DNA of 64,000 nucleotides, filler included, from a candidate division TA06 bacterium SM23_40 (GCA_001303705.1; 5 parts of 5 records of this genome joined end to end with filler, not necessarily neighbours in it), one strand, 5' to 3'; shown: positions 15,412 to 50,642, numbered from the whole stretch's first letter. The notes: generated by a model from the letters alone, not told the origin. Numbers and translations are program-made.

Positions 15412-15646
15412 CCGGGGACGTTGGTAGGTTCTGTAGGTTATCAGCCGGGGACGTACCTCAGTCCCGAAGGTTATCGGGGGGATGGGTTGACCTTCGCTTC
15501 GAGGACGTGCCCAAACCTCCCAAGCCTACCAACGTCCGCGGAGTATACCCGGTAACCTTCTGAACCTACCAACGTCTCCGGGGGATGGACCTGCCAAGGT
15601 CCGCAGAGTATACCCGGTAACCTTCTGAACCTACCAACGTCCCCGG
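15412..15646. repeat. Cluster A of the dispersed GGGGACGT-N13-AAGGTTA repeat; MITE-like, bounded by 29-bp inverted repeats
   Basis: Left end ccggggacgttggtaggttctgtaggtta; right end taaccttctgaacctaccaacgtccccgg (2 mismatches); about 7 copies in total. Confidence 0.85.
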
Positions 15647-15658
15647 GGAGGAAAGTGC

Positions 15659-15687
15659 TTGACGGGGAGAGGAGCAGCGAGTAGAAT
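15659..15687 (+). promoter_or_regulatory. Putative sigma70 promoter
   Basis: TTGACG-N17-TAGAAT. Confidence 0.6.
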
Positions 15688-15750
15688 GACTATGGGAGGA
15701 GGTGGGGTTGGACTGTAGGGATTGACCGACTAGAAGGGATGAGAGAGGTT

Positions 15751-16164
15751 ATGAGGAAGGGTCTGGCTCTGATTCTTGTTCTGCTCCTGGCGCTGGGTAA
15801 CACCCTCGCTCTGGCCGGCGGGGCGCCGGGAGAGGAGGAGCTCGCCTCGGCCGGCGAGGACGATGAGGTACCAGTCATTCTTGTTGCCGCGGCTGTCATC
15901 GTCGTGGGCGCGGTTCTGCTCTGGATTCTGATGCGCCCGGAGTCCGAAGAAGCCGCGGAGGAGACCGATACCTCTCAACGGATCGACCGCGACGAGTCTG
16001 ACTCTCCGGCTATGTCACCCCAGGCTCGACCAGAGGAGGATCGAGGTAGCATCGAGGGGGAGTCCGGCTCGGCATTAGGCCTGGATGAGAGTGAGACAGG
16101 CGTTGAGCCGACCCTCGGGATGGTCGATTCGACACCCTGGAACAGCATCGCATCGAACCTTTAG
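15751..16164 (+). CDS. Hypothetical membrane protein (signal peptide, one TM helix, acidic tail)
   Basis: MRKGLALILVLLLALGNTLALA...VPVILVAAAVIVVGAVLLWILM; RBS GAGG. Confidence 0.6.
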   Translation: MRKGLALILVLLLALGNTLALAGGAPGEEELASAGEDDEVPVILVAAAVIVVGAVLLWILMRPESEEAAEETDTSQRIDRDESDSPAMSPQARPEEDRGSIEGESGSALGLDESETGVEPTLGMVDSTPWNSIASNL

Positions 16165-16188
16165 TCAGGCCACGGCGCCGGATGGCGA

Positions 16189-16219
16189 CCCTTAACCTAG
16201 TCCTGAGAGGCTAGAAGGG
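16189..16219 (+). promoter_or_regulatory. PyrR-binding RNA loop (pyrimidine attenuator)
   Basis: CCCTTAACCTAGTCCTGAGAGGCTAGAAGGG matches the CUUUAA/ARUCCNGNGAGGYU consensus, upstream of pyrR. Confidence 0.88.
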
Positions 16220-16253
16220 AACTTGAAATGATCAGCACTCACTGCACCGAGCT

Positions 16254-47130: not shown

Positions 47131-47131
47131 G

Positions 47132-47231
47132 NNNNNNNNNNNNNNNNNNNNNNNNNNNNNNNNNNNNNNNNNNNNTTAATTAATTAANNNNNNNNNNNNN
47201 NNNNNNNNNNNNNNNNNNNNNNNNNNNNNNN
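47132..47231. other. Artificial contig linker
   Basis: N44-TTAATTAATTAA-N44. Confidence 0.97.
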
Positions 47232-48325
47232 ATCGACGGGTCTCTCGACATCGCATCTGTGTCGGTGACCCGCACCTCATCCATGAGCGACCGGTTCGGA
47301 CCCGGGTGCCATCCTGACGATACGGCTCTACTCTCCACCTCCCCGTTACTCTCATCCTTACCGGGCGGCACGATGAGCATCTCATCCAGCACCCGCCCCT
47401 GGGCGAGCGGCAGAGAGAATCCGAGGAGTTCGGCAATGGTCGACCCGATGTCGATCTGATCCCCTCTTGTCTCGATCACCGTGTCGGCCTTGATGTCGGG
47501 GCCGACGGCGAGAAACATCAGGTCGCGGCAGCCGCGATCCCGCATGCTGTGGTTCTTGAAGCCGCCGTGCATATCGTCGCGCCGACCGTGGTCGGTGGTG
47601 ACGATGAGTGTCGTCTTGTCGCGGTAGGTCGTGTCTCTGAAGGCTGGATTGAACGTCGTGTCTGCCTGTATCTTCTTCCAGATACGGTAGACGATCGCAT
47701 CCGCCCGCCTTATCGCCTCCAGATATCCCTCCCAGTTCTCCTGATGCCCCATGCGGTCGACTTCGAACAGATTGACCAGCACCAGAGAGGGGTGATATTG
47801 ATCCATCGCCTGCGCGAGGGCACGTGCGACGTGCATGTCCGACCTGGGATAGGCGTGGTAGGAAGAGGACGCGTACTCCTCACCATAGGCGGGATGTGTG
47901 CTGTAGTCCATCCCGATGAACCCGTCTGGGTTGTTGTCGAACAGCCAGATCTGTTCCTGGGGTATCCCCAGTTCTTTCCGATAGCATTCGAACGCGAGTG
48001 GGTCGTCACCCCGTGCAATGCAGTGCGGTAGCCCGCTCCTCACGCCGCTCAACATCGCCAAGTGGGCACCGGTAGTAATCGTCGTCCCGGTGTTGTAGAA
48101 GTTCGAGTAGATGGTCCCCAGGGGACGGAGGTCGTTCCACAAATGCGGAATGTTGGTGTGTGTCGTGTCATCAAACGCTTCGGTGTTCCGTACGCCGTCG
48201 ATAACTATGAGAAAGACGTTCTCAGTTACATAACTCGAAGCCGGATAGAGACCACCCAGCAAGAAGATTCCAGCGGCGCACCCCACCATCGCCATCACGA
48301 TCAAGCGTCCGCCCTGCGCCATCAT
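47232..48325 (-). CDS. Secreted alkaline-phosphatase-superfamily hydrolase, 5' part
   Basis: Signal peptide, IVIDGVR, TITTGAH, VDRMGH, TTDHGR. Confidence 0.8.
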
Positions 48326-48357
48326 CTTATACCCCCCTTCCCTGCAGCCACCCACTC

Positions 48358-50205
48358 CTACTTCAGAACCACCAGACGTCTGGTGGCATCCTGCTCCCCG
48401 ACGGTCAGCCGATAGAAATAGACTCCTGAGCTGACCATCGTTCCCTGACCATCCCGACCATCCCAGACGATCCGCTTGATGCCCGGTTCTTCCTTCGCAT
48501 CAACGAGCCGCCTGACGAGCTGACCCGCAAGATTGTAGATCGAGAGCGTAACATGACTGCACCCCGGACGCCCGCCGCTCCCTGCGGCGCCAACGGGCCG
48601 GCCGTCGCCCGGCACCCCGTACGATATCGCCGTATTCGAGCGCATCGGATTGGGAAGACTCTGCGCCAGGAAGAAGGCAGTGCTCACTTCTCTCTCCTCC
48701 GGCTGCTCCGAGATCCCCGGTTCCCCGACGGTGAAGGAAGCTGTGGCCATCCAGATCCCCGGTTCGTACCCATCGTCTGCACGCGCCCGCCACCAGTACT
48801 CCTCTCCCCAGGTGAGCGTCTCCGTCACTTCCCACGAGGTGGAGTCGACCCCCTCGGCGATCTCCGTCGCCGAGTCGACGAGTCCCGACAGCAGAGAGTC
48901 GCTGTACACCTCGAACGTATAGGTGAGCGGATCCCCCTCGACATCATCGGCGTTGAGGACGACCAGCGTCGGCGTCAGATCGAGCGTCTGCCCGCCGTCT
49001 GGCGGTGAGAGGAGAGCGGGCGCGGTGGGCACCGCATTCATATGAAACATCGTCTCGGCCCAGTCGCTCCAGTCGGTCCCATTGCTCGCCCGGGCACGTG
49101 CATAGTACGTCTCGCCATCCTCCAGCGAGGCCCCGGCATAGGTTGTGAACGTGTCAGGAGAGGCGACCGAGTCCGGATCCCACATCTCGGCGACCGACCA
49201 CTCGTCGTCGGTCCCCACCTCCACCTCATAGAATGCCTGGGGCACGGACCCGGGATCATCATATGCCCAGCTGATCAGCGGTGTGTGGTCGGTGATGTGC
49301 GAGCTGTCTTCCTCCCCGCCCACGTACAGTGTGAGGAGGATCGGCGCGCCCGCATAGAAATCCCCGGGAGTCGATTCAGCCTCGATCCACGTATTCGAGA
49401 GATCCTCGCTCGTCTCGTCATGGCCGGTGACCCCGTTTCCCCCGGAGAGCACCTCCGCCCCCTCATCCACACCCAACCGCTGCCATGACTCGCCAGCCGA
49501 ATGCCCGCTCGAAGCGATGTAGTCCTGATCGCCGACCGGGGTATCATCGAGATAGAAGGTCGAGAATGTGTCCGGATCCGGGCCGTCCTTGGCCAGGCCG
49601 GTCTTATACACGTTGATCTGCGCACTGATGTCTCCCCACTGGGCGATATCGACATCCCGAATCAGGTCGCCCTCGCCGTCCCAGTGGTAGAGTATCATCA
49701 CCTCAGCACCGTTGCTGAGCATATAGGCTGACGTCCCGATCCATGGGTCGATCTGCTGACAGTAGTCGATCCCCGGATCGATCATGTTGGGAACTTCATC
49801 CGGAACGACATCCGGGTGAAGTTCGAAGTCCGGATCGATCTCCGGATAGTAGCTTGCAGCGCTGTCCGCATCAATGCACATCCAGAGCGCCTCACCGGGA
49901 GCAATGATCTCTCCGTCCGGGAATTGGGCCAGAAAGTCCGAACTCCACGGCGTGTAGGTGCAGTCGACCAGATTGATATAATCCTGATCAAGACTGTAGA
50001 TGGCATCACAAAGGTAGTAGTCGGTGAGATCGATCGGACTATCTGTGGGATTGTAGATCTCTACGAACTCTGCCGGCGTCGGTGTCACGCAGATCTCTGT
50101 GATGAGGAGATGGTCTGCCGGCTCTCCCCGGGACGCCGCCACTCCCGATACCAGGCAGCAGACCAGTACGAGACAGGCCATCTCCACCCTCCCTATACGG
50201 TTCAT
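48358..50205 (-). CDS. Secreted lamin-tail-domain protein with Ig/FN3-like modules and FlgD-Ig/T9SS-like tail
   Basis: HLLITEI...EFVEIYNPT, YYARARA...WSDW, YWWRARA, QSLPNP...WDGRDGQG...SGVYFYRL. Confidence 0.82.
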   Translation of the reverse strand: MNRIGRVEMACLVLVCCLVSGVAASRGEPADHLLITEICVTPTPAEFVEIYNPTDSPIDLTDYYLCDAIYSLDQDYINLVDCTYTPWSSDFLAQFPDGEIIAPGEALWMCIDADSAASYYPEIDPDFELHPDVVPDEVPNMIDPGIDYCQQIDPWIGTSAYMLSNGAEVMILYHWDGEGDLIRDVDIAQWGDISAQINVYKTGLAKDGPDPDTFSTFYLDDTPVGDQDYIASSGHSAGESWQRLGVDEGAEVLSGGNGVTGHDETSEDLSNTWIEAESTPGDFYAGAPILLTLYVGGEEDSSHITDHTPLISWAYDDPGSVPQAFYEVEVGTDDEWSVAEMWDPDSVASPDTFTTYAGASLEDGETYYARARASNGTDWSDWAETMFHMNAVPTAPALLSPPDGGQTLDLTPTLVVLNADDVEGDPLTYTFEVYSDSLLSGLVDSATEIAEGVDSTSWEVTETLTWGEEYWWRARADDGYEPGIWMATASFTVGEPGISEQPEEREVSTAFFLAQSLPNPMRSNTAISYGVPGDGRPVGAAGSGGRPGCSHVTLSIYNLAGQLVRRLVDAKEEPGIKRIVWDGRDGQGTMVSSGVYFYRLTVGEQDATRRLVVLK

Positions 50206-50306
50206 CTCGCGGCCTCCTTCTCCTTCGTAGTCCAGCACAACAGCAGAGCCTCCACACCAGCTAACGACTATACCACAAAAGCATCCCACCTCGCCACCAA
50301 AAACCA

Positions 50307-50642
50307 GCGGACGTTGGCCGGCTCAGAAAGTTACGGGGACATACCTGGGTTTCGAAGGTTATTACACCCTCTCCCTGTCCAGGGACGTTGGTAGGTTCAG
50401 AAGGTTACGGAGACGCTGTCCAGTCCAGGGATGTTGGCAGGTTCAGAAGGTTACGAGGATGTACCTGGGTTTTGGGGGTTATTTCATCCTCTCCCTGTCC
50501 GGGGACGTTGGCAGGTTCAGAAGGTTACGAGGATGTACCTGGGTTTTGGGGGTTATTTCATCCTCTCCCTGTCCAGGGACGTTGGCAGGTTCAGAAGGTT
50601 ACGGAGACGTACCCAGGTTCCATAGGTTATTGCATCCTCTCC
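50307..50642. repeat. Cluster D of the GGGGACGT-N13-AAGGTTA repeat: 74-bp unit (variant 1 + variant 2 + 17-bp linker), about 4.5 units
   Basis: gggacgttggcaggttcagaaggttac + gaggatgtacctgggttttgggggttatt + tcatcctctccctgtcc, repeated. Confidence 0.88.

Follow-up and report, generated by a model that had tools for sequence, protein, structure and literature searches.

TIRtrons are elements in which genes resembling those of the REP-associated tyrosine transposases (RAYTs; REP, repetitive extragenic palindrome) are flanked by terminal inverted repeats (TIRs) and not by REPs (PMC3733652, Di Nocera, De Gregorio & Rocco 2013; this paper and the two cited next are represented here by portions of their text). 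Some of these TIRs have the motif GGGGWSAS, and gene-less TIR families, moderately abundant and occurring as singles, dimers or clusters, were described in the same 2013 study. Among the 26 described TIR-associated tyrosine transposases (TIRYTs), 20 fall in TnpA-Y1 subclass 2.1, which is equivalent to RAYT Group 1 and whose subgroup 2.1.2 has a Bac_DnaA_C-like tail (PMC6006769, Quentin et al. 2018). In the portions considered, binding and cleavage of the TIR by the enzyme are left to future work in PMC3733652 and are unresolved in PMC6006769. The 16-mers that flank Group 1 RAYTs have about 12 genome-wide occurrences, compared with 57 and 140 for those of the REP-associated Groups 2 and 3 (PMC5581495, Bertels et al. 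2017). Here we analyse a family of 29-30-nt repeats in the genome of candidate division TA06 bacterium SM23_40 (GCA_001303705.1), starting from a stretch of 64,000 nt, filler included, that chains contigs of one metagenome-assembled genome (MAG) and is called the window below. The family probably consists of TIRtron ends that have been dispersed and multiplied without their gene.

The MAG (G000) comprises 189 contigs and 2.88 Mb, with a G+C content of 60% and a completeness of 89.8%; the unit-bearing contigs of the window are C51 (1-28551), C52 (28652-37851) and C54 (47232-56189). A first-pass annotation had reported about 27 copies of GGGGACGT-N13-AAGGTTA in four intergenic clusters on these three contigs. 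With this 13-nt spacer the pattern gave no match in the window at up to 2 mismatches. With N12, the spacing of that annotation's own strings for the two variants V1 and V2, and up to 3 mismatches, 23 matches were obtained against 0.92 expected, and none of 100 shuffles reached that number; the two boxes are thus retained and the spacer is corrected. Twenty-one of the 23 matches lie within the four clusters, and the remaining two, at 20450 and 37661, are probably chance matches, each with 3 mismatches. In the window, scoring with a position-weight matrix gave 22 units, distributed as 5 in cluster 1 (15413-15645), 5 in cluster 2 (32234-32622), 3 in cluster 3 (33687-33778) and 9 in cluster 4 (50306-50630). 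The count rises to 23 scored units when the one at 32536-32562 from the pattern search is included, and two further decayed copies are visible by eye (~32401-32428 and ~33628-33655), so that the earlier figure was close.

On the scale of the genome, 131 matches were found at up to 2 mismatches, compared with 1 in the reversed genome, and 26 of the 131 are one identical 27-mer. Extending the count with a weight matrix gave 159 units (104 V1 and 55 V2) in 55 clusters on 41 of the 189 contigs, and the eleven commonest real 16-mers of the genome are all derived from V1, the top one being present in 67 copies. The arrays recur at 99% identity or more in loci of other assemblies, and the region 14900-16200 is tiled by contigs of four sequencing runs from four studies with 0-6 letter differences per listed piece, indicating that they are not assembly artefacts. 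We conclude that the repeat family is real and is the commonest repeat of this genome. In 40 other genomes, relatives at the level of the domain, the pattern had one match in each of 3 and none in 37, which resembles the reversed control; the TA06 genome is the sole species of its phylum in the collection searched.

The conserved unit consists of a C, GGGGACGT, a variable centre (TGGTAGGTTCWG in V1, ACCTRGGTTTYG in V2), G-AAGGTTA and then C or T; beyond these 29-30 nt no conservation was found. Both variants were recovered as first written, as were V1-V2 pairs with reused linkers, which recur with a 74-bp period in cluster 4. Single units, the V1-V2 dimer and a three-unit direct array, folded as DNA, did no better than shuffles (-0.1 kcal/mol, z +0.6 for V1; -1.1 kcal/mol, z +0.5 for V2), in agreement with the earlier remark that single units are not palindromic. 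GTAG occurs at unit positions 11-14, with CGTC on the other strand, and there is no hairpin for it to tag.

By layout, 19 of the 55 clusters are single units, 22 are one-direction arrays, 13 are convergent (>> <<) and 1 is mixed. As junctions, 14 are convergent and 1 is divergent, so that the GGGG ends face outwards, as in a complete element. V1-to-V2 steps are head-to-tail at 28-30 nt in 10 of 27 cases, whereas the closest V2-to-V1 step is 35 nt and the closest V1-to-V1 step 31 nt, indicating that a polar V1-V2 dimer exists. Linkers are similar within one array and at times between arrays. Unit spacing is irregular (28-133 bp, with gaps of 0-100 nt), direct arrays having their units at 28-46 bp and the arms of convergent clusters lying 46-286 bp apart; the absence of unique spacers noted at first pass is borne out. 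None of the 13 convergent clusters is flanked by an anchored direct repeat of at least 2 nt, such as a target-site duplication would leave; this fits an HUH enzyme and argues against a miniature inverted-repeat transposable element (MITE) of the DDE type. GC skew predicts the direction of 24 of 39 arrays (p 0.2) and the direction of local genes that of 23, neither being significant, with four weak single units left out of both counts; strand bias as a sign of lagging-strand targeting was accordingly rejected. Also discarded was the palindrome GGGGACGTCCCC as an excision scar, since it had 2 matches, no more than control palindromes.

The identity of V1 came from other phyla. When the genomes of 185,579 species were scanned with one pattern admitting both V1 and V2, 16 loci were returned, all V1-like and from MAG records titled delta proteobacterium, Desulfobacterales, Geobacteraceae or Proteobacteria; exact matches to the pattern numbered 42 in the TA06 genome compared with at most 3 in the genome of any other species. 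The earlier description as lineage-specific therefore stands for V2 and for the high copy number, and fails for V1. At locus L019 the 27-mer occurs at 2001-2027 (+ strand) and 3178-3204 (- strand) and brackets a 324-aa open reading frame (ORF, 2201-3175). Elements with these TIRs are about 1.2 kb long and are found in Desulfobacterota-type MAGs. Full-length homologues of the L019 ORF lie beside the 27-mer at L006, L007, L009, L014, L030, L034 and L083, and partial ones at L011, L016, L041, L044 and L064. The L019, L007 and L083 proteins combine Y1_Tnp and Bac_DnaA_C domains, the latter scoring 29.8 bits in L083, just below the 31.5-bit cut-off, and the L019 protein and its relatives reach 61-65 bits on a REP-associated tyrosine transposase model whose cut-off is 80 bits. 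At L019 itself, the left end (2001-2200) is present twice: one TIR leads into just the initial ~30 codons of the gene, and behind these comes another TIR with the full gene.

The proteins of L007, L030, L034 and L083 are 54-55% identical to that of L019, while their TIRs on the gene-stop side differ from that of L019 by 1 of 27 bases. The V1 of the TA06 genome is 2 bases away from the gene-stop-side TIRs of these loci and, overall, 1-2 of 27 bases from the TIRs found elsewhere. Judged by these identities, the TIR is far more stable than its enzyme, and the elements bracketed by the V1-like 27-mer are assigned to the TIRtron/TIRYT class, also known as TnpA-Y1 subclass 2.1.2 and RAYT Group 1. 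The link to a RAYT-type HUH transposase that had been put forward for the repeats is thus supported. Of the database comparisons, an Rfam gathering scan of the window found the signal recognition particle RNA and three tRNAs only and nothing on the repeats; an 11-letter stretch of the unit, searched in full-text literature, brought up only unrelated papers on eukaryotes or viruses.

The two ends of these elements differ at unit positions 16-19, which are A-rich at the gene-start end ('a') and T-rich at the gene-stop end ('t'). At L007, L030, L034 and L083, positions 14-20 read GGAATTG or GAAATTG in the gene-start TIR and GGTTTTG in the gene-stop TIR; the start-side copy nearest the gene in L019 reads GGTAATG, and the start- and stop-side TIRs of L009 lack the difference. 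Among the 159 units of the TA06 genome, 135 are of the 't' type, 14 of the 'a' type and 10 of neither, and an 'a' is paired with a 't' at 8 of the 14 convergent junctions, which is the combination shown by the ends of a complete element. Convergent clusters thus resemble TIRtrons from which the gene is missing. Gene-less t/a pairs of TIRs, 204 bp apart (~2001-2231), were also found in another phylum, at L018 (a MAG titled Proteobacteria bacterium) and at the metagenome loci L051, L073 and L091, and L041 holds a 430-bp version of the pair that keeps part of the transposase N-terminus.

Taken together, we favour, with a probability of roughly 0.75, the reading that the units are orphan copies of a TIRtron TIR, without its gene, which were dispersed in trans and then amplified locally. 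Dispersal would have been the work of a TIRYT that has since been lost, that escaped binning or that is foreign to this genome, as suggested by the elements of other genomes, and would have scattered ends to at least 55 intergenic sites, where they would then have multiplied on the spot into direct and convergent arrays. The helix-turn-helix (HTH) domain of such an enzyme may recognise the unit as duplex DNA by way of the constant boxes GGGGACGT and GnAGGTTA, and slippage or unequal recombination between units would lengthen and shorten the arrays. As a side effect, convergent arrays could give rise to long hairpins at gene 3' ends, as REPs and bacterial interspersed mosaic elements (BIMEs) do. 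The element class is a known one, with gene-less TIRYT TIR families described in 2013 in the part of PMC3733652 drawn on here, and the suggestion of an undescribed system has to be given up; what is new is an unusually large and apparently orphan TIR family.

Strain comparisons bear on the second of these steps. In 27 locus-to-genome comparisons within the population, in which indels of at least 8 bp were counted, 6 distinct indels were found and 5 of them lie in arrays. A 43-bp indel in a C33 array corresponds to a unit plus linker; cluster 2 varies by a 34-bp unit, by a 60-bp module and by a 15-bp duplication of its outer end and flank; and in C24 the indel is a 112-bp block, with which one unit, another in inverted orientation and a promoter-like stretch are lost. 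Structural variation is thus concentrated in the arrays and proceeds by whole units, as slippage or unequal exchange could bring about without any transposase. The sixth indel, at C165:519-520, is unrelated to the repeats: 88 bp present in L046 and L074 are missing from the MAG contig, either as a strain difference or through local misassembly.

Two features were associated with the outer ends of clusters. At 10 of 67 outer ends, compared with 0.3% of 2000 random places, a stutter was found, in which 5-12 nt of flank and the first 7-13 nt of the unit are repeated in tandem. One stutter (15 bp, cluster 2) is polymorphic between strains, and in other phyla 3 of 43 ends have one. The stutter may be an enzyme footprint or a seed for slippage. 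In addition, a GGGG outer end lies within 30 nt of a flanking stop codon at 26 of 66 exposed ends, compared with 2 of 37 exposed GGTTA ends (Fisher p 1.5e-4, with crude ORF picks of at least 120 aa).

Several observations weigh against the orphan-TIR reading. No partner gene was found in the TA06 genome: tblastn with the L019 protein gave at best 30% identity over 70 aa, at a relic on contig C134; profile searches with PF01797 and NF047646 returned this relic alone, below both cut-offs; dnaA is the only gene with a Bac_DnaA_C domain; and no TIRYT coding remnant was detected in or beside any of the 55 clusters, every tblastn match having E > 0.1. These negatives rest on an 89.8%-complete MAG and do not prove absence. 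They agree with the earlier description of a non-autonomous family. A metagenome scan returned 82 loci, 56 of which have at least 56% G+C and V1 of the GGTTC type or V2, the rest having 42-55% G+C and the GGTTTTG type. Almost every one of these 56 loci either matches the TA06 genome at 97-100% identity or represents an unbinned part of its population, and within 2 kb on either side of the units the 56 too contain no TIRYT homologue. Mobilisation by a TIRYT-like enzyme is therefore suggested by other genomes. V2 was found only in the population of the TA06 species and flanks no transposase gene anywhere searched, GGGGACGT agrees with the motif GGGGWSAS (GGGG[AT][CG]A[CG]), published for some TIRs, at 6 of 8 positions, and known TIRtron biology does not explain one-direction arrays of up to nine units or the strict abutment of V1 followed by V2. 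No new insertion at an empty site was seen, and all observed changes were local, in a set of loci fetched via the repeat, in which empty sites are invisible. Finally, the stop-codon bias could reflect selection for a host function.

Eight of the unit-bearing loci (L022, L036, L061, L063, L067, L071, L072 and L085) could not be aligned to the TA06 genome; they carry ordinary genes and no transposase, and seven genes tested from L022, L036, L061, L063, L067 and L085 had no close copy in that genome. They seem to come from the same population, as parts of it that went unbinned, and not from a second species. The relic on C134 (3335-4200, corresponding to 1294-2200 of L005) is a RAYT-like Y1 gene of another subtype, broken by one frameshift and by two stop codons in frame. 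Its matches to Y1_Tnp (22.3 bits) and REP_Tyr_transpos (21.7 bits) are weak, and it lacks a Bac_DnaA_C domain and has C at what is presumably the position of the catalytic Y of its relatives; its flanks are lower in G+C, and neither units nor inverted repeats were found flanking it.

The function-based alternative holds that the host keeps the arrays for gene 3' ends, where hairpins would terminate or stabilise the transcripts arriving from upstream and would shield the promoter that follows, as proposed for REP/BIME, the transposon origin being only history. The proximity of GGGG ends to stop codons speaks for it, as do the single identical 27-mer that accounts for 26 of 131 matches, the promoter-like sites 13-14 nt beyond clusters 1 and 3 and the RNA fold of 15405-15655, which at -129 kcal/mol (z -7.9) would allow cluster 1 to form one long hairpin. 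However, one-direction arrays make up 22 of the 55 clusters and single units another 19, and neither kind folds: cluster 3 (z -0.3) and cluster 4 (z +1.3) are not beyond shuffles. Moreover, T-run terminators were absent from clusters 1, 3 and 4, unit number differs between near-identical strains, so that the exact structure is not conserved, and neutral insertion into short intergenic gaps would also bring units next to stop codons. We regard this explanation as unlikely, though it deserves to be kept in mind. A somewhat bolder proposal, which we hold to be improbable, takes the 29-nt non-palindromic unit itself as the duplex-DNA substrate of HTH-bearing Y1 transposases. Arrays would then be built by unit-by-unit insertion beside an end already in place, a process that would leave the stutter as its footprint; V1 and V2 would act as the two binding modules of one composite end, and the stop-codon bias would reflect target choice. 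To our knowledge, no such mode of action on duplex DNA has been described for HUH enzymes.

Another possibility, suggested in part by the first-pass annotation as a genome-wide protein-binding array, is that the units are sites for a nucleoid, regulatory or domesticated transposase-derived protein and form a binding landscape. Two constant boxes around a variable centre, direct arrays at 28-46-bp spacing and the DnaA-type HTH of the partner protein elsewhere would all suit such sites, yet no candidate binding protein was found, the MAG having neither a TIRYT, nor a second Bac_DnaA_C protein, nor an intact Y1 protein; with irregular spacing, a unit number that varies between strains and no tie to a gene class, nor to promoters beyond adjacency, this explanation is decidedly improbable. 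It is very hard to defend a classical REP/BIME system driven by the C134 gene, to which the weak Y1_Tnp and REP_Tyr_transpos matches and the GTAG and CGTC of the unit might point: the gene is broken, lacks Bac_DnaA_C and is unflanked by units or inverted repeats, and the units are not palindromes. As a driver the relic is largely refuted by its frameshift, its two in-frame stops and the lack of flanking units. The inverted ends and the ~28-bp unit length might also recall a DDE-type MITE, a CRISPR-like array or an assembly artefact, which we consider the most far-fetched of the explanations. A MITE is opposed by the lack of target-site duplications (0/13) and of anything conserved inside or outside the unit, a CRISPR array by linkers that are reused instead of unique, irregular spacing and the lack of cas genes among the 58 ORFs of the window, and an artefact by the same arrays in independent assemblies and in four runs of four studies. 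More generally, the 58 window ORFs of at least 100 aa gave no transposase, cas or integrase match in Pfam (E <= 1e-4 for 8 ORFs, <= 1e-6 for 50), as had been noted at first pass.

Compared to the described TIRtrons, the TA06 family has in common a unit that is the TIR of elements coding for Y1 plus Bac_DnaA_C proteins, starts with GGGG and forms no hairpin, as well as intergenic copies, most of them downstream of genes, that stand singly, as dimers or in clusters. It differs in that no resident transposase gene was found and in having V2, long one-direction arrays and the polar V1-V2 dimer. In copy number it far exceeds RAYT Group 1, the 67 copies of its top 16-mer comparing with about 12 occurrences of the flanking 16-mers in the part of PMC5581495 used here. 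With the REP/BIME and REPIN-RAYT systems of Enterobacteria and Pseudomonas it shares short high-copy intergenic repeats near stop codons that are tied to the HUH tyrosine transposase family, and, as in REP/BIME, there are often convergent pairs able to fold. However, a REP is a 20-40-bp imperfect palindrome with a GTAG/CGTC-footed hairpin, whereas the TA06 unit is no palindrome and has no GTAG-footed hairpin, so that the BIME/REP architecture first proposed for it does not apply; in addition, the enzyme class that partners these repeats has an added HTH that binds duplex DNA. In REPIN-RAYT systems the repeats flank a single-copy RAYT gene, whereas the only Y1 gene found in the TA06 genome, that on C134, is unflanked and broken. 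IS200/IS605 elements such as IS608 and ISDra2 belong to the same catalytic superfamily and likewise make no target-site duplication, but they have subterminal hairpins and unlike left and right ends instead of TIRs, and the TA06 arrays show no GC-skew strand bias (24/39, p 0.2).

Group 1/TIRYT is the largest and most widespread RAYT-like branch, and neither the function of its members nor the processing of their ends is shown in the portions of PMC3733652, PMC6006769 and PMC5581495 drawn on here. The TA06 genome is a natural extreme of this branch, with about 160 copies of an end and no enzyme in view. It offers testable features, namely the a/t ends, V2, the polar V1-V2 dimer, the stutters and the unit-by-unit differences between strains; with these, a near-constant 27-nt end set against enzymes of 54-55% identity provides substrates for a first test of TIRYT activity. 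In practical terms, the repeats break the assembly of this MAG, and it is advisable to mask them before searching it for promoters or regulatory motifs. Longer contigs of other assemblies (L031, L055, L084 and L095) bridge MAG contig ends across clusters, at C69/C74, C156/C33, C184/C8 and C125, which makes the repeat family one cause of the fragmentation of this MAG.

The features of the four window clusters are collected in Table 1.

Table 1. Repeat clusters of the window and adjoining promoter-like sites (> and <, forward and reverse units)
Feature	Position	Strand	Details
Cluster 1, convergent array	15413-15645	both	GGGG ends outward
Cluster 1 units	V1> 15413-15441; V2> 15446-15474; V1< 15512-15540; V1< 15552-15580; V1< 15617-15645		unit 15512-15540 decayed
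Promoter-like TTGACG-17-TAGAAT	15659-15687	+	1 found vs 0.1 expected; 14 nt beyond cluster 1; neighbour, outside the repeat
Cluster 2, convergent array	32219-32622	both	
Cluster 2 stutter, 15 nt	32219-32233		flank and first unit bases, duplicated
Cluster 2 forward units, then a decayed copy	V1> 32234-32262; V2> 32278-32306; V2> 32311-32339; ~32401-32428		last copy decayed
Cluster 2 reverse V1-like< units	32475-32503; 32536-32562; 32594-32622		inside a 59-60-bp tandem module
Cluster 3, one-direction array	33628-33778	-	V1 33687-33715; V2 33722-33750; V1 33750-33778; decayed copy ~33628-33655
Promoter-like site	33791-33819		13 nt beyond cluster 3
Cluster 4, nine units, one direction	50306-50630	+	abutting V1-V2 dimers (28 nt), then a 17-nt linker; 74-bp period

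The four clusters are mostly intergenic, as first described, except that the first unit of cluster 2 overlaps the last 14 nt of a neighbouring ORF. This ORF (29363-32248) codes for a 961-aa Eco57I-like methylase, and the stutter and first unit (32219-32248) encode its ..TIRGRTIRGRW end and its TAG stop, which is the unit's own GTAG. Elsewhere in the genome, three other flanking ORFs extend 14-21 nt into a unit. Cluster 1 begins 2 nt past the stop codon of an M1-peptidase ORF (13297-15411). In cluster 3, read on the - strand, the second V1 abuts V2. The promoter-like site beyond it lies ~415 nt upstream of rho (34234-35565), which suggests that rho has a long leader, and a 134-aa ORF on the opposite strand (33829-34233) has no Pfam match. 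Cluster 4 sits between two - strand genes (48358-50289 and 50700-51425), and neither a promoter-like nor a terminator-like site was found there.

Large secreted-type proteins of the window, encoded at 13297-15411, 48358-50289 and 8570-10417 and including M1 peptidase and Lamin-tail-domain proteins, end in a FlgD_ig-like C-terminal domain, which we take to be typical of type IX secretion sorting tails. On two other contigs (C143:518-5380 and C84:20-2357), four paralogous ORFs of 567-738 aa share a C-terminal peptide, ..MVILR followed by the stop, and a unit lies within ~30 nt after each of them.

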